DNA of 24,000 nucleotides from a bacterium (GTDB lineage Bacteria > Patescibacteriota > Saccharimonadia > CAILAD01 > JAUYJX01): NCBI GenBank assembly GCA_030699245.1, contig JAUYJX010000036.1:752-24751 (forward strand), given 5' to 3'. The notes under the pieces are model-generated. The model did not search any database, was not told the origin of the DNA, and saw nothing but the letters and a program-made list of their open reading frames with translations. Shown piece after piece: positions 3,834 through 12,062 of this stretch; position 1 is the first letter of the stretch, and each line of letters starts with the position of its first letter. The translations under genes and the position numbers were made by a program.

Positions 3834-4174
3834 AGCTCAATTAGATCCACAATTATCTTCTCTACCTTCTCGCGAACATTTTTGTCAGCAATTTCCATTG
3901 ATTTATTGCCTAGTTTTGGCTTGATATTAATTAAAGATTCAAAGGCAATTTTTTTTGTTGGTTTTTTCCAGTAAATATTAAACCCCCAGATATCGTTAGA
4001 ACTTGAACCATTCTCTACCAATTTTGCTTCGCTATCGGCATGCAGTTCTCCGCCTAGTGCGATAATGTTTCTTTTTATATCCGCGACGCCTTTGATAAAC
4101 TCATCGAAATGGGTGCAATTTTTAACAGCATCACTGATTTTGGTTTTTTGATTAATTATCTGTATTTTTTCCAT
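3830..4174 (-). CDS. small hypothetical protein, resembles DUF5674-type proteins (from memory, unverified)
   Basis: 114-aa ORF. Contains ALGGELHADSEAKLVENGSSSNDIWGFNIY...LINIKPKLGNKS, a pattern I associate with DUF5674. Confidence 0.6.
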   Translation of the reverse strand: MEKIQIINQKTKISDAVKNCTHFDEFIKGVADIKRNIIALGGELHADSEAKLVENGSSSNDIWGFNIYWKKPTKKIAFESLINIKPKLGNKSMEIADKNVREKVEKIIVDLIEL

Positions 4175-4276
4175 AATAAGTGTATTTATATTATCACATT
4201 AGATAAAAAGCAGTCGCAAGTTACCAACCCGAACCCTGGCAGTAAATTTTCTCACAACGTTAGTTGGAAGGTATAT

Positions 4277-4354
4277 CTAAAAATCAAGTAGCTTTTTATT
4301 GGCTTTTCTATGTTTTTTGTATAAATCTATTAAAGTGCTAAAATAGCTAAGCTT
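4277..4354 (-). pseudogene. C-terminal relic of a paralog of the 16..771 HExxH gene
   Basis: The minus strand reads (stop)KLSYFSTLIDLYKKHRKANKKLLDF(stop). The 16..771 product ends EYFTDLYKKNKK...KTIKANKKLFDF(stop). The fragment is bounded upstream by an in-frame TAA and abuts tRNA-Arg. Confidence 0.6.
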
Positions 4355-4375
4355 TTAAGATATAATAAGGTTTAA

Positions 4376-4452
4376 GCGCCCTTAGCTCAGTGGATTAGAG
4401 CATCTGTCTTCGGAACAGAGGGTCGGGGGTTCGAATCCCTCAGGGCGCGCCA
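4376..4452 (+). tRNA. tRNA-Arg (anticodon TCG)
   Basis: Hand-folded 77-nt cloverleaf. Acceptor gcgccct/agggcgc, anticodon loop cttcgga, T-loop ttcgaat, CCA encoded. Confidence 0.9.
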
Positions 4453-4457
4453 TTTCG

Positions 4458-4534
4458 GGGCCATTAGCTCAGTTGGTTAGAGCGTCTGCCTCTTAAGCAG
4501 AATGTCCCGGGTTCGAGTCCCGGATGGCCCTCCA
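4458..4534 (+). tRNA. tRNA-Lys (anticodon CTT)
   Basis: 77-nt cloverleaf. Acceptor gggccat/atggccc, anticodon loop ctcttaa, T-arm ccggg-ttcgagt-cccgg, CCA encoded. Lies 5 nt after tRNA-Arg. Confidence 0.9.
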
Positions 4535-4566
4535 ATTTCTTATAAAGAATTTACGAATGGTAAAAT

Positions 4567-5136
4567 ATGAAAACTCCTAAATTTAGCAAACCCATCCGAG
4601 CCGTAATAAAGAATTATATAACAGGTGAAAATTATACACTTAATAGTGTAGATGGCTCCTTTCGGTTGACAGATAGAGATTATAGTCAGATCACAAAAAT
4701 TTGTAACGAGCCTGATATCTACAATCTTTTATTTCGTGAAAGATTTAAAGGCAGAAAATATGTTAAGCAAGATGCTCGAATTTGGATGTCTATGGCAAAA
4801 CAGGGCTGGGAAGAAAGCTCGAATTTTATATTTTTGGTGAGAGATAATAACGGTTCTATTGTCGGCGCCATTGATATCAAATCGCCCGATTTATCAGGTG
4901 CGGAAATCGGCTATTGGGCCAGCGCATATGCAAGAGGCTTTATGACAAACACATTAAAAAAATTATGCAAGATCGCTGAAGAAGCTGGGTATTCATCTTT
5001 GTTTGCTTTGATACTTTCCCGCAACTTAAAATCAATTGGCGTTATCAAAAGATCGGGTTTTAAAAACTTAGGTTTAGTAAATGAGAGAGGAAAGGACTTC
5101 TGCAAATACCAGATCTTACTAGGGCACGGGGGCTAA
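4567..5136 (+). CDS. GNAT family N-acetyltransferase (RimJ/RimL-like)
   Basis: 189-aa ORF. Contains IGYWASAYARGFMTNTLKKLCKIAEEAGY...SIGVIKRSGFKNLG, typical of the GNAT acetyl-CoA binding core. Confidence 0.75.
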   Translation: MKTPKFSKPIRAVIKNYITGENYTLNSVDGSFRLTDRDYSQITKICNEPDIYNLLFRERFKGRKYVKQDARIWMSMAKQGWEESSNFIFLVRDNNGSIVGAIDIKSPDLSGAEIGYWASAYARGFMTNTLKKLCKIAEEAGYSSLFALILSRNLKSIGVIKRSGFKNLGLVNERGKDFCKYQILLGHGG

Positions 5137-5195
5137 AAGGTTCCAGACTTAGATGTTCCTCCACTTAGTAAAATTCAATAATATTTAATAATAAA

Positions 5196-5819
5196 ATGAC
5201 ATTTAAAATAAGCAAAAGCAATCATTCTAAATTAGACAAAGTATATGAGAAATCAATGACTGAATTAATTTCTTTTTTCGGATTAAATTGGAAGTACAAT
5301 CGACCAAATTTGATTTTAGTTCCGGATAGAAAAACTATTGATTTATTGTGTGGCGAAAAAACTGAAGATTGGTTAGTTGGTTGGGTAAGAGGAAGAGATG
5401 CATATGTATTAAACCATGAAGCATTTGGAACAGATAGTAGTCACGAATATTCTAACGAACAATATTTTGCTCTTATCAAGCATGAACTTACACACTGTTT
5501 TTCAGGTAATGTTTCGAAATACGCTCATATACCCGTATGGCTAACAGAGGGTATCTCCATATATTTATCAGGTCAAAATAAATTCAAAACAAAACCCAAG
5601 AAACTAACTAGATTTATTGATTTTTATCAAGAAGGCGGAAAAGGGCTTTATAGTGAAGCGGGTTTCGCTGTTGAGCTTTTGGTCAAAAAACACGGAAAGC
5701 AAAAGATATTGAAACTGCTAAAAAGATTAAAAGAAGTTAATTCAAGGAAAGATTTTGCTAATTTATTTAAATCTATCTATGGGTTTGAGTTAAAGTATGA
5801 AAATTTTAAAATAGTATAA
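5196..5819 (+). CDS. putative MA-clan (gluzincin-like) metallopeptidase
   Basis: 207-aa ORF. HExxH in IKHELTHCFSG, followed about 20 aa later by WLTEGISIY, a candidate third-ligand Glu as in Peptidase_MA_2-like proteins. Confidence 0.65.
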   Translation: MTFKISKSNHSKLDKVYEKSMTELISFFGLNWKYNRPNLILVPDRKTIDLLCGEKTEDWLVGWVRGRDAYVLNHEAFGTDSSHEYSNEQYFALIKHELTHCFSGNVSKYAHIPVWLTEGISIYLSGQNKFKTKPKKLTRFIDFYQEGGKGLYSEAGFAVELLVKKHGKQKILKLLKRLKEVNSRKDFANLFKSIYGFELKYENFKIV

Positions 5820-5847
5820 TGAGCACTTATACTTTAATTAATAATAT

Positions 5848-5888
5848 ATGAGACATCTTTTTCTATAATGTCTCATTTGTCTTATTTT
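5848..5888 (+). terminator. rho-independent terminator after 5196..5819
   Basis: Perfect 9-bp stem atgagacat(5848-5856)/atgtctcat(5868-5876), followed by the T-rich tract ttgtcttatttt. Confidence 0.6.
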
Positions 5889-5964
5889 CACCTTAAAACT
5901 AGTATAATATAAGACAGTGGAACACAAAGCCAAAAAGGTTTCAGACCTAATTGTTCTTTCGTAG

Positions 5965-6041
5965 CGGGGTGTGGCGCAGTTGGCTAGCGCGCCGCGTTTG
6001 GGACGCGGAGGCCGGAGGTTCGAGTCCTCTCACCCCGACCA
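5965..6041 (+). tRNA. tRNA-Pro (anticodon TGG)
   Basis: 77-nt cloverleaf. Acceptor cggggtg/caccccg (C1-G72, as in bacterial tRNA-Pro), anticodon loop tttggga, CCA encoded. Confidence 0.9.
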
Positions 6042-6044
6042 ACT

Positions 6045-6075
6045 AAAAAAGACCCCAACGGTGAGGTCTTTTTTG
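6045..6075. terminator. bidirectional terminator between tRNA-Pro(TGG) and the convergent membrane-protein gene
   Basis: aaaaaagacc...ggtctttttt: the A-tract and T-tract flank a gacc/ggtc stem with a 10-nt loop. Confidence 0.55.
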
Positions 6076-6094
6076 ATTTATTTCTGTTTAGCAA

Positions 6095-6472
6095 TTATTT
6101 GTTTACTGGAGCTGAACTGGCTTTACCGAGAGCTCGGTAAACTGCGAAGTAGTAAACCAACGCGCCGATAAAGTGCAGTCCTACTACGAATGAAACAATC
6201 AGCACAACTAACCAAGTAGTCTTTTGGCTATCGTCTTTCCAATTGGTTCTTTTAAATGCATCAATCAGCATAAAAATCCAAAAGATTAAAGTCACCAAAC
6301 CTATGATTGCTGCGATTATCACAAATATCCAGATACCTGCAAAGATTCCTACAGCTGCAGCATCGCTTGCCCCGCTGTCGCTAAATTCTTGAGCTAATGC
6401 CTTGCCAGCCAACATTACTGCTGCACTAGAAGCACCCAAGCCGCGAGCTAATATACTTTTATATTTTCCCAA
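6095..6472 (-). CDS. small membrane protein with PLD-nuclease N-terminal-like (PLDc_N) domain
   Basis: 125-aa ORF with a TTG start 5 nt after AAAGGAGG. Contains FWIFMLIDAFKRTNW...KTTWLVVLIV...GALVYYF, a PLDc_N-like pattern with TM helices. Confidence 0.7.
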   Translation of the reverse strand: MGKYKSILARGLGASSAAVMLAGKALAQEFSDSGASDAAAVGIFAGIWIFVIIAAIIGLVTLIFWIFMLIDAFKRTNWKDDSQKTTWLVVLIVSFVVGLHFIGALVYYFAVYRALGKASSAPVNK

Positions 6473-6614
6473 TTTTTCCTCCTTTAGTTAAAATCCGTTA
6501 TTTCAATAATAATTAAATACCAAAAAGGCCCTCAAGGCAAGTATGGTCTCGTTTTAGTTTGATAACTAAAGTATAATTTCACCTAAGTCTAGAATTGAAA
6601 AATAGCGAATCTGT

Positions 6615-6728
6615 AAACCAATCCAACAAACCAACTAATAGCAAATTTTATAAATTCGAGGGGAATAATAATTTATTTTTCTAAACCAATTCAACAAACC
6701 AAGAAATTTATAACTGTTTGTTGAATTG
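6615..6728 (+). repeat. imperfect ~68-bp tandem duplication; second unit forms a perfect 13-bp hairpin
   Basis: aaaccaatccaacaaaccaa (6615-6634) versus aaaccaattcaacaaaccaa (6683-6702), 19/20 identical. caattcaacaaac (6687-6699) pairs with gtttgttgaattg (6716-6728). Confidence 0.7.
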
Positions 6729-6805
6729 AGAGGAAAAATAATGTGAAAATATCAACTGTAAATGAGTACAATTACAGTATCTATTGAATCATTATTTTGA
6801 CGAGA

Positions 6806-6881
6806 CAGGGTGTAGCTCAGTTGGGAGAGCGCAGCGTTCGGGACGCTGAGGTCGCAGGTTCAAGTCCTGTCACCCTGACCA
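6806..6881 (+). tRNA. tRNA-Pro (anticodon CGG)
   Basis: 76-nt cloverleaf. Acceptor cagggtg/caccctg (C1-G72), anticodon loop ttcggga, T-loop ttcaagt, CCA encoded. Confidence 0.9.
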
Positions 6882-6980
6882 TCCTTCGTTAAAACTACGG
6901 AATGGTAAACCATTAAACTTCACACCTTGTGTTTCGCTTAATTAGTAATATTTTGAAGTTTAATGGGAGGGAAAAAGTTA

Positions 6981-7164
6981 CTCCATAGCCCTGTCTGCTC
7001 TTCGAGCCTGTCTGCCGACAGGCAGGTCTGAGCCCTGAGGCACCGCCCTCAGAGTCGAATGACCGACAGGCAGGTTCATGCGAAGGGTAACCCTGACCAC
7101 CCTTCTCCACTAACTGGCTACGGATGGCAGGCCATAGACTCTTGCCCGGAAGTAAGCTATGAGG
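6981..7164 (+). ncRNA. GC-rich structured element of unknown class downstream of tRNA-Pro(CGG) (candidate ncRNA, leader or integration scar)
   Basis: Closing helix ctccatagc(6981-6989)/gctatgagg(7156-7164). Hairpins at 7006-7023, 7035-7052 and 7082-7105. Internal repeats are detailed in the findings entry for 6872..7164. Strand is inferred from colinearity with the tRNA. Confidence 0.45.
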
Positions 7165-7205
7165 ATAAACCAAACAAAATTAATTAAAATTTTCCAAGTT
7201 TTCAA

Positions 7206-7922
7206 ATGCAAATAATCTACATTAGTTTGCTAACAATTTTAGCCAGCACTATTGGTACAGTTACTGGATTTGGTACCTCAACAATTATGGTGCCAGTCTT
7301 ACTATTGTTTTTTCCTTTGCCTCAAACCCTTCTGCTGGTTGGCATTATCCACTTCTTTGGTGATATCTGGAAACTAACTCTCTTTAAGAGAAAGTGGTTA
7401 TGGAAGGTGCTGTTAGGCTTTGGTATACCGGGGGTAATTGCCAGTTTTTTTGGTGCTAAATTGATTTTTAGTTTGCCCGCTAACCTAATTACCAAAATTA
7501 TAGGTGGTATTTTAGTTGCTTACGGTATTTTTATTATTATTAATCCGGTGTTTAAACTAGCCATAAATTATCTGACCTCAATTATTGGCGGGGTAACTTC
7601 GGGGTTTCTAGCTGGTTTTGGCGGAGTTGGTGGTGCACTGCGAGGACTTTTCTTATCTGCTTATGATCTGCCAAAAAGTACATATATATTTACCTCTGGC
7701 GCGATTGCTTTTGCCATAGATTCAACTCGTATAACCACTTATTTCGCCAATGGTACTAGACTGGATAGTCTGCTGACTGTTGGATTGTTAATTTTTATAC
7801 CTGCTTCATTTATGGGTGCCAAGATCGCTCAAAAAATTGTCAGCAAAATTTCTCAACGCCAACTTCGAATTACTATAGCTATCTTTTTACTAATTGTCGG
7901 AGTTAAGCTAATATTTTTTTAG
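7206..7922 (+). CDS. TauE/SafE (DUF81) family membrane transporter
   Basis: 238-aa polytopic membrane ORF. The Gly-rich TM repeats (TVTGFGTSTIMVPVLLLF..., GGVTSGFLAGFGGVGGALRG) are typical of the family. Confidence 0.75.
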   Translation: MQIIYISLLTILASTIGTVTGFGTSTIMVPVLLLFFPLPQTLLLVGIIHFFGDIWKLTLFKRKWLWKVLLGFGIPGVIASFFGAKLIFSLPANLITKIIGGILVAYGIFIIINPVFKLAINYLTSIIGGVTSGFLAGFGGVGGALRGLFLSAYDLPKSTYIFTSGAIAFAIDSTRITTYFANGTRLDSLLTVGLLIFIPASFMGAKIAQKIVSKISQRQLRITIAIFLLIVGVKLIFF

Positions 7923-7925
7923 ACG

Positions 7926-7954
7926 TTGACAGAATAGTAATTTTGGGGTAGAAT
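7926..7954 (+). promoter_or_regulatory. sigma70-type promoter for the GC-rich ORF
   Basis: TTGACA(7926-7931), 17-nt spacer, TAGAAT(7949-7954). Downstream lie AAGGAGG at 8006-8012 and the ATG at 8017. Confidence 0.6.
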
Positions 7955-8016
7955 ATATAAATTCTCTCGGTTATAGCTGAGAGTTGTTTTAATTGACCCA
8001 CTAAAAAGGAGGCATT

Positions 8017-8832
8017 ATGCCGCTGGGTCAGATTGATAACACCAAGATTTCCGTCTCCTTCAGAGGAGAGGAAATCATCCCCGAAGAGAGTGGCTATCTC
8101 GGCCAGCTGGAATCCAAAAACCAGCATAGGCCAGATATACTGGCTCTGGTCGTCACCGTTTCGGATGAAAGCTACCATGGGTTCATGGTGGATGGGCAAA
8201 AGAACGTCAGCCCTTCTCGCGATCTGAACCAGAAGTCTCTCACACCCGGGATTAAGGTGTTCCGCCAGAAGATGCCGATCAAGTTCTTGAGTCACCTTGC
8301 TGTCTGGCACACAGAGTACGCAGAGAACAATTTGCGATTGCTTAAGTTGGAGCTTGACGGAAGTTTCTGCGTCTGGGAGATCGCTATCATCTCCCAAGAC
8401 GGCTGCTTCTTCCTGACGAAGCAGCGGACTTACGAGAGCCGGTGCTATCGGGACGAGTCGGGTCAGCTGGTTTGCCCTGACTTTGAAAAGTGGCCACAAC
8501 TGGTTCATTTCTTGAAGACTCTAGTGGAATCACCCGAGTCTCTCGAAGCTGTTGAGAGCTGGAGTCCCAAACCGGGGATAGATGGCTCAGACCTAGAGCC
8601 TGGAACTGCCAGAGTCATCTGGTGGAACTGCGCCCAGGGACTCGGGGCCATAGCAGCTCCGGAGGGAGCAGCGCGAGTCCACTGGACAGAGTTGCCAATC
8701 GGTGACGAGCTGGCATATCTGTCCAAAGGACAGCTTGTGAGCTACTCGTGCTTCAAGCCACCCGAGAGCACGTGTGGTCGCTCCACTAGCTTCCAACGAG
8801 AAGCAGTGGCGGTTACGCCCCTCGGTGTCTAG
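8017..8832 (+). CDS. GC-rich hypothetical protein with C-terminal cold-shock-like (OB-fold) region
   Basis: 271-aa ORF with a strong SD. The C-terminus GTARVIWWNCAQGLGAI...ARVHW...LSKGQLVSY follows the CSD pattern GxVKWFNxxKGFGFI..VFVHF..GQxV. The N-terminal ~190 aa are unrecognised. Composition is clearly higher in G+C than the flanks. Confidence 0.75.
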   Translation: MPLGQIDNTKISVSFRGEEIIPEESGYLGQLESKNQHRPDILALVVTVSDESYHGFMVDGQKNVSPSRDLNQKSLTPGIKVFRQKMPIKFLSHLAVWHTEYAENNLRLLKLELDGSFCVWEIAIISQDGCFFLTKQRTYESRCYRDESGQLVCPDFEKWPQLVHFLKTLVESPESLEAVESWSPKPGIDGSDLEPGTARVIWWNCAQGLGAIAAPEGAARVHWTELPIGDELAYLSKGQLVSYSCFKPPESTCGRSTSFQREAVAVTPLGV

Positions 8833-8853
8833 CATCAGCCTAGACACCACCCA

Positions 8854-8880
8854 ATACCCCGCGTTCGCGGGGTATTTCAT
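8854..8880 (+). terminator. rho-independent terminator of the GC-rich ORF
   Basis: 9-bp stem ataccccgc(8854-8862)/gcggggtat(8867-8875), loop gttc, then a T-rich tail. Confidence 0.8.
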
Positions 8881-8942
8881 TTAATTATTTTTTTATCACC
8901 AAAAACACGAGTGATAGCTGGTCTGTGAATTGCTGATAATCC

Positions 8943-8971
8943 TTGAGTAAATTAGGCTTATGGTATAAAAT
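8943..8971 (+). promoter_or_regulatory. candidate promoter for the tRNA-Gly/tRNA-Arg pair
   Basis: TTGAGT(8943-8948), 17 nt, TAAAAT(8966-8971). Alternatively TGgTATAAA as an extended -10. Lies about 55 nt upstream of tRNA-Gly. Confidence 0.4.
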
Positions 8972-9027
8972 TGATAGTTTCTATCGCTTAAGTAAAAGAT
9001 TAGTTTACTTTATAATTATTAAAGCAT

Positions 9028-9102
9028 GCGGGTGTTGTATAGTGGCTATTACGTCAGCCTTCCAAGCTGAAGACGGCGGTTCAATTCCGCTCACCCGCTC
9101 CA
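9028..9102 (+). tRNA. tRNA-Gly (anticodon TCC)
   Basis: 75-nt cloverleaf. Acceptor gcgggtg/cacccgc, anticodon loop cttccaa, T-loop ttcaatt, CCA encoded. Confidence 0.88.
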
Positions 9103-9180
9103 GTCCCCGTAGCTCAGCTTGGATAGAGCAACTGCCTTCTAAGCAGTAGGTCGCAGGTTCGAATCCTGCCGGGGACGCCA
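9103..9180 (+). tRNA. tRNA-Arg (anticodon TCT)
   Basis: 78-nt cloverleaf. Acceptor gtccccg/cggggac, anticodon loop cttctaa, CCA encoded. Starts on the nucleotide immediately after the CCA of tRNA-Gly. Confidence 0.9.
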
Positions 9181-9332
9181 CGAAAAATTCCTTTCTCAAA
9201 AACGAATTACATTCTGTTATTTGAAAAGTGTCATATTCGTGGCACAGCCATTGAAAGGAGAACTACTTGTGATAGTTGGAGTACAATAGCATCAGCTATC
9301 GTACAAAGACCTAAGCAATAGTTTGACGACGA

Positions 9333-9410
9333 GGTGGGTGTAGCTCAGCTGGTTAGAGCAACGGGTTGTGGTCCCGTAGGTCGTGGGTTCGAATCCCATC
9401 ACTCACCCCA
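9333..9410 (+). tRNA. tRNA-His (anticodon GTG) with encoded G-1
   Basis: Acceptor gtgggtg/cactcac, an extra 5' G (9333) opposite discriminator C, anticodon loop ttgtggt, CCA encoded. Confidence 0.9.
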
Positions 9411-9519
9411 TTAAACTTCGCTACTTTGCTTAAAGGCGGGTTTAGCGAAGAAATAAAATAAATGAAGGGATGAGAAGTTTATCCGCCAATCGGCGGGAAT
9501 CCCATCACTCACCCCATTA
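9391..9519 (+). repeat. exact 23-bp direct repeat of the tRNA-His 3' end bracketing an 83-bp hairpin-containing insert
   Basis: gaatcccatcactcaccccatta occurs at 9391-9413 and 9497-9519. Between the copies lie the hairpins cttcgcta(9416-9423)/tagcgaag(9443-9450) and ccgcc(9483-9487)/ggcgg(9492-9496). Confidence 0.85.
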
Positions 9520-9528
9520 GAAAATAAG

Positions 9529-10428
9529 ATGATTATTTTTACTTTCCCCAACTATAAATTTATGCTGCCGGAAATTTTAAATAAAATACCTGGTTTAAAA
9601 TCTGGTGGTTTCTCTATTAATCGTTTTTCAAATCAAGAAATTTATGTAAGTTTAAATTCAGAGGTAGCAAACCAAGATTGTCTGATACTGGGTTCTATCT
9701 CTCCTCCGGAGCAGAATTTATTTTCACTTCTGCTTTTAGCTGATACTTTAAAAAAACAGGAAGCTTTAAGTACTACAGTCTGTTTGCCCTATTTAAGCTA
9801 CGGTAGGGCCGATAGAGATGAATACAACAAAAGTTTAACCATTAAATGGATTGGACGGCTCTTCAAAGCTTCATCGGTTGACAAATTAATAACTTTTGAA
9901 GCCCATAGTCAGCTAGATCAAAAGCTTTTCCCGATCCCTTTAATTTCCATATCAACAAGCGAAATTTTTGCCAAGCAAATTATAAAATTATCGCTTGAAA
10001 AATATAGCCTGGTATCTCCCGATGAAGGGGCTATAGATTTATGTCAAGTAACTGCTAATTTAATAAATTCAGCTCAACCAATAGCTTACTTTAAGAAAAA
10101 AAGAGATAAAAAGGGAATCATTCATTCGACACTAATCGGAAAAGTCAGACCTCAAGTTATTATTTTAGATGACATATTAGACACCGGAGCTACACTGCTA
10201 TCTTGTACCAGTCAATTAGCGAAGGTTGGTGTAAATAACATTGTTATCATGGTCACACATGGCTTATTTACCGGAAGTAAGTGGAAAAAATTATGGCAAA
10301 ATAATGTTACTGAAATTTACTCAACGGATACTACCCAGCCCAGAAAAGATTTAGATTTGAAAAAAATTAAAATTTTACCGATGGCTTCTTTTATTGCAGA
10401 GAAGTTAAAATATTATTTAAACTTATAA
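9529..10428 (+). CDS. prs: ribose-phosphate pyrophosphokinase (PRPP synthetase) family
   Basis: 299-aa ORF. CLPYLSYGRADR matches the Prs motif PYxxYxRQDR. ILDDILDTGATL is a PRPP-binding loop. Confidence 0.8.
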   Translation: MIIFTFPNYKFMLPEILNKIPGLKSGGFSINRFSNQEIYVSLNSEVANQDCLILGSISPPEQNLFSLLLLADTLKKQEALSTTVCLPYLSYGRADRDEYNKSLTIKWIGRLFKASSVDKLITFEAHSQLDQKLFPIPLISISTSEIFAKQIIKLSLEKYSLVSPDEGAIDLCQVTANLINSAQPIAYFKKKRDKKGIIHSTLIGKVRPQVIILDDILDTGATLLSCTSQLAKVGVNNIVIMVTHGLFTGSKWKKLWQNNVTEIYSTDTTQPRKDLDLKKIKILPMASFIAEKLKYYLNL

Positions 10429-10431
10429 ACT

Positions 10432-11070
10432 ATGCACGAACTTCAGTCAAAACTAGTCAATATATCGGCTGATGATGTTAATCTAGAAGGTTCTCTAAAT
10501 ATTCCTGAACGTTCTAAGTCAATTGTTTTATTTGCTCATGGTAGTGGTAGTAGCAGATTTAGCCCCAGAAATAATTATGTAGCCAGTGTGTTGCAAAAAT
10601 CGGGACTCGCTACACTACTGATTGATTTGCTAACCGAGCAGGAAGATCAGGTTTATGAAACTAGATTTGATATAGATTTATTAACTAAACGGCTAATCAT
10701 AGCTACTAAATGGCTAAGAAATAATCCCCCATCAAAAGATTTATCAATTGGTTACTTTGGAGCAAGTACTGGCGCTGCAGCAGCTCTTCAAGCAGCTGCT
10801 AAGCTAGGGGCAGAAATCAAAGCAATAGTTTCCAGAGGCGGTAGGCCTGATTTGGCTAAGGAAAATCTAAAAAAAGTTCAAGCTCCTACTTTACTATTAG
10901 TCGGTGGTAATGATACTGAAGTGATTAAGCTAAATCAAATAGCGCTAGATGAATTAAAAACTACTTGTGATTTAGTAATAGTTCCTGGTGCCACTCACCT
11001 ATTCGAGGAACCAGGAACTTTAGAAAAAGTTGCCCAGATATCTGCCAAGTGGTTTAAAAAATACTTATAA
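10432..11070 (+). CDS. dienelactone hydrolase-like alpha/beta hydrolase
   Basis: 212-aa ORF starting 3 nt after the prs stop. Contains VLFAHGSGSSRFSPRNNYVA...LLIDLLT and the nucleophile-elbow-like GASTG. Confidence 0.75.
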   Translation: MHELQSKLVNISADDVNLEGSLNIPERSKSIVLFAHGSGSSRFSPRNNYVASVLQKSGLATLLIDLLTEQEDQVYETRFDIDLLTKRLIIATKWLRNNPPSKDLSIGYFGASTGAAAALQAAAKLGAEIKAIVSRGGRPDLAKENLKKVQAPTLLLVGGNDTEVIKLNQIALDELKTTCDLVIVPGATHLFEEPGTLEKVAQISAKWFKKYL

Positions 11071-11093
11071 CTCTAGAGTAAATTTTATTAGTA

Positions 11094-12062
11094 TCAGTAG
11101 CCGAGGGTTTTATTTTGAGAATTAATCAGCCAGTGATTAGTCTTATTATCAAAAATCAGAGTATAGACCATGGTATCTGTGTATTGTGAGGAATTCGGCT
11201 GGGTTGCGTCCCGGTACTTATACAAAATATTTACCTGAACCTCATATTTATCCCCTAGTCTATTAGTCCCAACCAGCCTAAAACTGACCGGATAAGTATA
11301 CAACCTAGCATCAGGGGTAATAGTACTAAAATTAAATTCATTGATAAAAGCATCTGTCATATATCGCTTCATTTTCTCTACATCTCCGGAGATAAAGCCG
11401 TCCATAAATTTATTTATATTCGATTCCACTTCTGCCCTGTCACTAGCTTCTTTTTGCATCTGACGTTCTTTTTGAGTCTTCTCGGCTTCTTCTTTGGCTT
11501 TTTGTTCATCCATTTTGTCTTTAGCAGATTTTAGATAATCAGCAAGGTTGAAAATATCAGAGGATATATTTTCTTTGAGATAACTGATACTATTTTTTAC
11601 TTCATCGCTAGATTGACGTGCTTGAGCTGAAAGTAAACTGAGCTTAGTAAAGTCCTCCTCGTCTAAAATTTTTATATCATCACTCATACTAGCGGCTTGT
11701 GAGCTGTAATTGCTAAATTTTTCTAAAAAATTTCTGTATATAAAAAGTGATTTTTTATCATTCAATAGTGTTGAGATATTTCCTGCATTGAATTTTTCAT
11801 CTCTAATTAAACTGTCTAAATTATGGATTTCCCTTGACAAGTCATTAACATTTTGAGGGTTTAAATCCTTTTTCGCTAGAATAACTTTATCGCTACGTGA
11901 AGCTAGTGAATGCCAGCTGGACTTGATAAATTCTTTACTGTAAGAGCTTCTTTGTAAATACCAGCCATAAATCCCTAGCGTTGCAAGGATTATCAGTGTG
12001 ACAAGAAAAATAATCCAGAATTTCTTGGTTTTATAAAATTTGGGTTTGGGATCTTGTTCCAT
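11094..12062 (-). CDS. membrane-anchored coiled-coil protein of unknown function
   Basis: 322-aa ORF with an N-terminal TM helix (FWIIFLVTLIILATLGIYGWY), a Lys/Glu-rich central segment and a globular C-terminus. Confidence 0.65.
   Translation of the reverse strand: MEQDPKPKFYKTKKFWIIFLVTLIILATLGIYGWYLQRSSYSKEFIKSSWHSLASRSDKVILAKKDLNPQNVNDLSREIHNLDSLIRDEKFNAGNISTLLNDKKSLFIYRNFLEKFSNYSSQAASMSDDIKILDEEDFTKLSLLSAQARQSSDEVKNSISYLKENISSDIFNLADYLKSAKDKMDEQKAKEEAEKTQKERQMQKEASDRAEVESNINKFMDGFISGDVEKMKRYMTDAFINEFNFSTITPDARLYTYPVSFRLVGTNRLGDKYEVQVNILYKYRDATQPNSSQYTDTMVYTLIFDNKTNHWLINSQNKTLGY

Follow-up and report, generated by a model that had tools for sequence, protein, structure and literature searches.

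The bacterial cold-shock proteins (CspA, CspB and CspE; PF00313) are near-universal, conserved, single-domain proteins of ~70 aa, built on a five-stranded OB barrel that is also seen in the cold-shock domains (CSDs) of Y-box proteins and Lin28. In E. coli, cspA-type mRNAs carry a structured 5' untranslated region, are thermosensing, and are acted on by CspA itself. Two further kinds of element bear on the locus described here: the large ornate non-coding RNAs ROOL and GOLLD, some of which are found near tRNA genes, and the tRNA-linked or replacement-type flexible islands. We analyzed a 24,000-nt stretch of a Patescibacteria genome (hereafter the window; all coordinates are positions in it) and describe a GC-rich single-gene cassette at 7926-8894 that encodes a 271-aa protein and resembles each of these systems in part.

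The C-terminal 70 aa of the protein family form the same barrel as the Csps and retain a W, an H and one aromatic of the binding face. Unlike the Csps, however, the window protein has 271 aa with a predicted 190-aa all-beta front, carries Q-G-L-G-A-I at RNP1 and A-R-V-H-W at RNP2 (F to A and F to R, respectively), and belongs to a family that is accessory, patchy and fast-evolving. As in cspA-type mRNAs, a CSD gene is combined with an unusually structured mRNA and a leader hairpin with a U-rich tail, which makes self-regulation through RNA structure plausible; in the cassette, however, the excess structure and GC-richness run throughout the coding sequence (CDS), and the leader is short (~56 nt), its sequence not conserved across the family. 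Like ROOL and GOLLD, the cassette would give a strongly folded, GC-rich transcript of ~0.8-0.9 kb beside tRNAs in an AT-rich genome, but it has no Rfam match, is clearly protein-coding and shows no family-wide consensus structure. Finally, as in flexible islands, a compositional outlier lies beside tRNAs in a gap that is empty in relatives, the family is enriched near tRNA and transfer-messenger RNA (tmRNA) genes, and divergent alleles occupy one locus in near-identical strains. The cassette differs from such islands in being a single 0.95-kb gene with no integrase-like ORF noticed nearby and no flanking att repeats, and in a family GC excess that persists through long vertical descent without ameliorating.

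Taken together, our results lead us to give a little better than an even chance to a joint reading: that the cassette is a predicted expression unit of a fast-evolving accessory family, that it was inserted in this lineage, that its GC-richness and folding are family-wide and maintained by selection on the RNA, and that the protein has a conflict-type or niche-specific role.

The protein family and its predicted domains

The 271-aa protein had no match in Pfam, NCBIfam, PADLOC 2.0 or PHROGs 4 (Pfam, PADLOC and PHROGs at E<=1), and a word-indexed homolog search returned one relative. An exhaustive phmmer search of 1.84 billion representatives recovered 428 relatives at E<=1e-3, 274 at E<=1e-10 and 61 at E<=1e-30. 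The description of the protein as unrecognised in a first-pass annotation of this DNA therefore stands as far as catalogued families go, but with 428 matching cluster representatives the protein is not an orphan. Nearly all relatives are 255-290 aa long and align end to end; the closest full-length one is 43% identical among ~15 billion proteins, and the homolog clusters are mostly singletons on short contigs. The family alignment is marked by the blocks VDGxKNV, TxYPxNNxRLL, WEIALxSQxGxFFLTxQxTY and CPxFxxWPQ, followed by GxVxWWNxAQGxGAI...ARVHW. The window protein has a pI of 5.2 (family median 8.2) and no membrane segment. In the deposited annotation of the 26,301-bp contig only a 102-aa product is given (P0002; aa 170-271, 8524-8832), so that the N-domain was missed; the Logan assembly of a different run contains the identical, full 271-aa gene adjoining tauE.

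The family was found in 2 of 41 same-order genomes and in 18 of 401 genomes of the phylum (~13 of them full length). A pattern scan based on a 14-row alignment, applied to one genome per species (185,579 species), identified 11 loci: nine with labels of Patescibacteria lineages, one labelled "uncultured bacterium" and one in a metagenome-assembled genome (MAG) labelled Gammaproteobacteria. In this MAG the family member lies on a 104-kb contig (CAZNIO010000003.1) in surroundings of 37% GC; the label possibly results from an error in binning or naming; alternatively, the family may extend beyond Patescibacteria. Named genomes bearing homologs belong to Saccharibacteria, Paceibacterota, Niyogibacteria and other Patescibacteria. 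A pattern scan of IMG/VR found no relative, and searches of the literature on cold shock in Patescibacteria and Saccharibacteria and on hypervariable tRNA islands in the candidate phyla radiation turned up nothing on this family. The family is unnamed, unannotated and nearly confined to Patescibacteria-labelled genomes.

AlphaFold2 (AF2) modelled the full protein with a pLDDT of 95.9 and a pTM of 0.91, and the N-domain alone, from an independent 31-sequence alignment, with a pLDDT of 94.0. The modelled N-terminal part has 12 strands at aa 9-142 and a linker helix at aa 160-169. Foldseek comparison of this domain with PDB and BFVD gave no match (best E 0.03-0.06, TM<=0.27), and Pfam analysis of 107 members assigned no family to it. 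SmpB-like and lipocalin-like identities were rejected, since the Foldseek matches were merely weak beta-meander similarities (TM<=0.27, rmsd >10 A). As modelled, the N-terminal part is a new all-beta domain without a solved structural relative in PDB.

The C-terminal part is a divergent CSD. A family profile matched solved cold-shock proteins in PDB at E 2e-8, PF00313 matched 54 of the 107 members (best 2e-9), and the window protein alone reached PDB by phmmer at E 0.0038. Foldseek aligned aa 197-264 with 3a0j_A (E 2.6e-4, TM 0.75), with 1csp (TM 0.79) and, in BFVD, with a phage CspD (TM 0.85); the AF2 strands of this region form the five-stranded OB barrel characteristic of the domain. The alignment and consensus contain G-x-V-x-W-W-N, Q-G-x-G-A-I (RNP1) and A-R-V-H-W (RNP2), in which the aromatics W, W, H and W are retained, the second RNP1 Phe is replaced by Ala, and the first RNP2 Phe by a conserved Arg. 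Both parts of the first-pass description, namely ~190 aa without a known family followed by ~75 aa of cold-shock/OB-fold pattern with partly substituted RNP aromatics, are borne out by these searches. By homology, the CSD probably binds single-stranded RNA or DNA. With respect to canonical cold-shock proteins (PF00313), a by-family tally found none in the source genome or in 24 same-class genomes; across the phylum, 96 of 401 genomes carry one. We rejected the idea that the family complements an absent canonical Csp, because 5 of 13 holders also carry one compared to a background of 24%.

Evolutionary rate, base composition and mRNA folding

The family evolves faster than its neighbors. In syntenic locus pairs, the family protein is 52-55% identical compared to 65-88% for neighboring proteins. 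Two loci, L057 (gene at 3973-4776) and L059 (3771-4574), have flanks that are 99-100% identical and a family protein that is 86% identical. Their codon differences (33 synonymous-only, 41 nonsynonymous) lie almost entirely within ~550 nt that encode the N-domain and linker, where nucleotide identity is 76-90%; the cold-shock part has three synonymous changes and no nonsynonymous one. Replacement by recombination with a diverged allele leaves this pattern. Similarly, a neighbor gene is 99% identical between L057 and L061, and the family gene 77%. Across close pairs, synonymous-only and nonsynonymous codons stand at ~1:1.2, roughly a dN/dS of 0.3-0.45, and the gene is therefore coding but weakly constrained.

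The source genome comprises 573 kb in 59 contigs with a GC content of 0.386 and is 87% complete (relatives' genomes, 0.6-1.2 Mb). Measured over 300-nt segments, GC is 0.35-0.41 before position 8000, 0.51-0.57 across 8000-8899 and then 0.43. We compared the GC content at third codon positions (GC3) of the cassette gene with that of 469 genome ORFs (open reading frames) of >=120 aa (mean 0.338, sd 0.059): with 0.647 it lies at z +5.3 and ranks first of the 469. GC1 and GC2 are raised by just 1.7 sd, so the excess sits mainly at silent sites. The log-likelihood of its synonymous codons under genome usage is likewise the lowest among 327 genes (z -5.05). Codon choice unlike that of the neighbors, as proposed in the first-pass annotation, is thus confirmed by both statistics. 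EF-Tu, EF-G, 13 ribosomal proteins and HU have GC3 values of 0.25-0.41, from which we conclude that this genome shows no expression-linked GC3 enrichment; expression-linked codon bias was rejected here on the same grounds. The cassette gene freely uses CCC, GGG, ACG and CGG, codons that EF-Tu avoids. Other GC-rich features in the source genome (G000) are a 111-aa ORF with a GC3 of 0.71 (C58:12999-13334), an 827-nt stretch with a GC peak of 0.58 (C48:4084-4910) and a 567-aa ORF with a GC3 of 0.51 (C38:1443-3146); some of the top-GC3 ORFs of the genome may be spurious frames within RNA genes.

The GC3 excess is found across the family. At 23 loci, GC3 of the family gene exceeded that of its neighbors by a mean of 0.126, and at 15 of the 23 the difference was larger than in 95% of the 81 control genes (Mann-Whitney p ~1e-6; the loci are partly kin). 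Twelve further metagenome loci had offsets of +0.49, +0.48, +0.45, +0.43, +0.20, +0.13, +0.08, +0.08, +0.07, 0.00, -0.04 and -0.31. In GC-rich hosts (flank GC 0.56-0.61), the family genes are even richer. At four locus pairs, the synteny of the loci indicates vertical inheritance, and the gene is GC3-rich in most members, L015 and L010 having no excess. Family trees are star-shaped, their tips long; in them no sister of the window protein is supported, and the other same-order copy (G022) does not group with it.

The mRNA is also folded beyond what its composition predicts. The stretch 7960-8880 (921 nt) has a minimum free energy (MFE) of -391.5 kcal/mol compared to -322 (sd 9.5) for dinucleotide shuffles (z -7.3). 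To separate structure from coding, we used synonymous-codon shuffles, which keep both the protein and its codon usage (60 for the window CDS, 12-16 for most other genes). The CDS has an MFE of -345.7 compared to -297.5 (sd 8.4), or z -5.7, with the same z from dinucleotide shuffles. Values for 21 homologs ranged from z -1.4 to -11.0, so that all 22 family mRNAs tested fold better than their shuffles. Control genes, 63 in all, had a mean z of about -0.8: 42 random genes of the source genome gave -0.82 (sd 1.49, minimum -4.6), 18 neighbor genes in other hosts -0.84 (sd 1.31), and the window's own neighbor genes -1.0, -3.5 and -1.2. The excess structure is distributed over the CDS and peaks broadly beneath the conserved core, and the 71-nt leader has a folding z of -1.7.

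Within this structure, the coding sequence of the most conserved peptide motif forms a hairpin in most homologs. The pairing Ser codon of this hairpin is TCC in 23 of 37 members and, when native motif hairpins were compared with re-encodings drawn from their own codon usage, 68% had p<=0.2, more than expected. A common fold (-275.7 kcal/mol, 94.7% of cells paired) was obtained for four alleles of a single GC-rich clade; double changes affect 10 of its pairs, more than in shuffles (5.8, sd 1.6) or in slid controls (0-5). A pairwise alifold comparison with independently shuffled partners was discarded, because the shuffling destroys shared codons and so biases the result towards signal. In Rfam 15, only tRNAs passed the gathering score in the window, and nothing meaningful appeared at E<=1 in 5800-9600.

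As the GC3 excess and the folding are both family-wide and are kept under vertical inheritance, the composition is not simply a donor fingerprint, as it had been interpreted in the first-pass annotation. The proposal of a recent transfer likewise found no support, with no relative above 43% identity and an excess that persists in the syntenic pairs, and the star-like tree yields no close donor. What holds of that interpretation is an outlier gene with its own signals, a new N-terminal part, a CSD tail and an insertion; its recency and the donor fingerprint do not. Gene conversion biased towards GC at a recombination hot spot might contribute to the GC excess, but it is unable to yield folding beyond composition-matched shuffles.

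Cassette layout and insertion site

The features of the cassette and its surroundings are listed in Table 1. All the elements that had been read from the sequence in the first-pass annotation were recovered: an intact, sharp-edged, GC-rich single-gene cassette with its own expression signals, a promoter scored here as near-consensus, the leader hairpin, the ribosome-binding site and the terminator. The antisense and alternate-frame ORFs reported with them are also present in the ORF list. The genome contains 37 promoter-like sites with at least 11 of 12 consensus matches; the promoter is thus native in style rather than exceptional. The leader hairpin begins ~3 nt past the expected transcript start and is possibly a 5' stabilizer or an attenuator.

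Table 1. Features of the cassette and its flanks (window positions)
Feature	Position	Strand	Details or basis
Promoter, sigma-70-type, TTGACA-17-TAGAAT	7926..7954 (-35 at 7926-7931, -10 at 7949-7954)	+	11/12 consensus matches
Leader hairpin, 8 bp, loop of 4, followed by TTGTTTTAAT	7964..7983	+	contained in both MFE and centroid structures
Shine-Dalgarno (SD) site, AAGGAGG	8006..8012	+	4 nt upstream of ATG; read from sequence
CDS, 271 aa, unnamed Patescibacteria family	8017..8832	+	GC 0.547, GC3 0.647
N-terminal part, aa 1-190, predicted all-beta domain and linker helix	8017..8586	+	AF2
Hairpin encoding the motif WEIAIISQ	8374..8396	+	arms 8374-8381 TGGGAGAT and 8389-8396 ATCTCCCA
Divergent cold-shock domain, aa 197-264	8605..8808	+	profile search, Pfam on family, Foldseek
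Intrinsic terminator, stem-loop 8853-8876 (10 pairs) and T-rich tail	8853..8894	+	
Lineage-specific block: tRNA-Pro(cgg), GC-rich element, tauE, cassette	6473..9027	.	between small membrane gene and tRNA-Gly
Small membrane gene	6095..6472	-	left boundary of block
tRNA-Gly(tcc)/tRNA-Arg(tct)/tRNA-His(gtg) cluster	9028..9410	+	downstream of cassette

The same arrangement recurs at homologous loci. A promoter with at least 10 of 12 matches lies 36-100 nt upstream of the start at 30 of 38 of them, GGAGG-type sites precede most homologs, and equivalent terminators follow nearly all. The leaders (36-100 nt) are heterogeneous, and their hairpins are present but of different sequence. The order of upstream terminator, promoter, leader hairpin, GGAGG, gene and terminator is near-universal in the family.

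Downstream of the cassette, the tRNA-Gly/Arg/His cluster is kept in all 13 of the same-order relatives' loci examined. The gap between the membrane gene and tRNA-Gly measures just 320-430 nt in seven same-order relatives from four families compared to 2556 nt here, which points to acquisition at this site in this lineage. Comparison with related genomes, as suggested in the first-pass annotation for the tauE/tRNA-Gly junction, thus identifies an insertion site that is empty in the seven relatives, and insertion of the gene into a conserved gap beside the tRNA cluster is well supported for this lineage. The adjoining tauE (a TauE/TSUP-type permease at 7206-7922) is of native composition (GC3 0.31), yet it was not found in 39 of 40 same-order relatives (a convincing match in 0 of 39); the 2.5-kb block therefore contains two or more accessory genes that differ greatly in composition.

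No repeat pair brackets 7923-8900, and an A-T7-A run at both edges was rejected as a target-site duplication because it is not above chance. No integrase-like ORF was noticed among those listed in 5000-12000, ORFs that were not searched against family libraries. The first-pass suggestion that the cassette was cargo of the neighboring tRNA-linked elements found no support: no repeats of those elements flank it. Several features of the region were observed separately. The 3' end of tRNA-His has an exact 23-nt duplicate (9391-9413 and 9497-9519, 106 nt downstream), which looks like an att-type scar of integration or excision; the cassette lies outside it. The 3' end of tRNA-Pro(cgg) (6869-6887) recurs with 89% identity at 7087-7105, 218 nt downstream, in a GC-rich intergenic element (6882-7170; MFE -94.2, z -3.1 compared to shuffles) that has no Rfam match. 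Both of these tRNA 3'-end duplications enclose short elements other than the cassette. The genes for tRNA-Gly and tRNA-Arg (9028-9180) abut with zero spacer (9102/9103) and are 23-630 nt apart in same-order relatives.

Proximity to tRNA genes extends to the family as a whole. In ~8 of 30 lineages the family gene lies within 500 nt of a tRNA or tmRNA gene, compared to 6.2% of genes in this genome, or ~4x expectation (rough binomial p 4e-4). Examples include positions between tRNA-Ile(gat) and tRNA-Ala(tgc), between tRNA-Ala(ggc) and tRNA-Ala(tgc), after tmRNA, and beside an Arg/His/Gly/Pro cluster. In genome G201, the family gene (L007:2790-3116) lies directly 3' of the tmRNA gene on the same strand.

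Weighing the explanations

The reading that we favor combines these observations as follows. The cassette would act as a single-gene expression unit in which the predicted promoter, leader hairpin, strong ribosome-binding site and terminator serve the 271-aa gene. Its protein is predicted to pack the new all-beta N-domain against the divergent CSD, and N-domain alleles are exchanged between near-identical strains with the CSD kept constant. The variable N-domain may supply specificity. Rapid turnover, patchy distribution and the tRNA/tmRNA hot-spot position suggest a conflict-type or niche-specific accessory role rather than a housekeeping one. The GC-rich, heavily paired CDS, together with the leader hairpin and terminator, would be held by selection on the RNA, which could serve to stabilize the message, to place it under the control of the protein's own RNA-binding activity or to insulate it from that activity. 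A variant that we consider unlikely, yet worth keeping in view, makes the folded mRNA part of the function. In this variant, the CDS would stay G/C-rich and base-paired irrespective of host composition because the message is a decoy or substrate of its own protein or is exceptionally long-lived, and the protein would be a modular sensor, employed in conflicts that involve phages, mobile elements or hosts, in which a constant cold-shock effector is joined to a recombining, strain-variable N-domain with a new fold.

Several points weigh against the favored reading. The conflict-type role is read from the evolutionary pattern, and PADLOC and PHROGs gave no match. The window's own sequence fails to reach the Pfam CSD at E<=1, and nucleic-acid binding is proposed by homology to a domain whose RNP aromatics are partly retained. 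Certain control genes reach folding values of z -3.5 to -4.6, no consensus RNA structure was found across 12 divergent members, and the within-clade covariation is suggestive only, since the four alleles compared were also the source of the structure. The GC excess in the window is the largest of the first 23 loci, being exceeded only by the L057/L059/L067 clade and L071, and an import from a GC-richer relative may have come on top of the family trait. The loci compared are partly kin, so that the statistics overstate their independence, and ORF calling in them was mechanical.

The most serious of the alternatives is a simple, recent horizontal transfer from a GC-richer donor, in which the cassette would still show the composition and codon usage of that donor, as yet without amelioration. 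It would account for the top compositional and codon outlier of the genome, for a site that is empty in same-order relatives, for a family found in 2 of 41 same-order genomes with the other copy (G022) not a sister, and for the traces of tRNA-targeted integration in the region, and some family members are indeed found in GC-rich hosts (flank GC 0.56-0.61). We nevertheless regard it as improbable, although far from negligible. The GC3 excess recurs at most loci, including the syntenic vertical pairs and the GC-rich hosts, and nearly every offset is positive, unlike what symmetric transfer would yield. Moreover, donor base composition is unable to explain folding that exceeds composition-matched shuffles, and the best relative among ~15 billion proteins is 43% identical. 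The promoter, SD and terminator are in the style of the host phylum, no repeat pair flanks the cassette, and no integrase was noticed among the ORFs listed in 5000-12000. A native and very highly expressed RNA chaperone that replaces missing CspA-type proteins, with codons shaped by translational selection, appears more doubtful still. Its near-consensus promoter and strong SD, the canonical CSD found in neither the source genome nor the 24 same-class genomes and present in 96 of 401 across the phylum, and a similar shift of EF-Tu at several two-fold codons (TTC, TAC, GAC, AAG, CAG, CTG) all speak for it. Highly expressed genes, however, including EF-Tu, EF-G, those for ribosomal proteins and HU, have a GC3 of 0.25-0.41 compared to 0.65 here, EF-Tu avoids the CCC, GGG, ACG and CGG that the cassette gene uses, and 5 of 13 holders have a canonical Csp as well; a family that is patchy (3-4% of genomes), fast-evolving and allele-swapping is also unlike a housekeeping chaperone.

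Two remaining explanations place the function in the RNA. In one, the transcript is a functional structured RNA, or an RNA-mobilized cassette, that also encodes a protein. Folding of z -5.7 to -11 against synonymous shuffles, the shared fold with certain compensatory changes and long-range helices in one clade, the rare TCC codon of the motif hairpin and a tRNA-side location like that known for ROOL and GOLLD are consistent with such a dual function. We find it quite unlikely, given that there is no Rfam match and no consensus structure across divergent members, that the excess structure is spread along the CDS without a discrete domain, and that no reverse transcriptase or different mobilization gene lies nearby. 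The other explanation, that of a GC-rich non-coding RNA with an open frame that is a by-product of composition, would fit the strong folding and the long ORFs on both strands, but it is effectively refuted by conservation at the protein level. Full-length protein homologs are 27-48% identical and share conserved motifs, the AF2 model has a pLDDT of 96 with a recognizable CSD, the SD lies at the correct distance, and synonymous changes are above chance (three synonymous and no nonsynonymous in the CSD of L057/L059).

The favored reading, if correct, has consequences beyond this locus. In small AT-rich genomes, it is routine to take a compositional outlier for a recent import; here the signal is a long-lived property of a family, coupled to excess folding, and transfer calls based on composition may thus mislead systematically in candidate-phyla bacteria. 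The silent-site selection suggested by GC3 values of up to 0.9 in hosts at 0.4, and by folding values down to z -11, would make a testable case for selected mRNA structure. The family further adds an unannotated domain without a solved structural relative, fused to a well-known RNA-binding fold. Finally, a constant CSD joined to an allele-swapping N-domain at tRNA-linked hot spots suggests an accessory or conflict function that has yet to be explored, in organisms with very few known systems of this kind.

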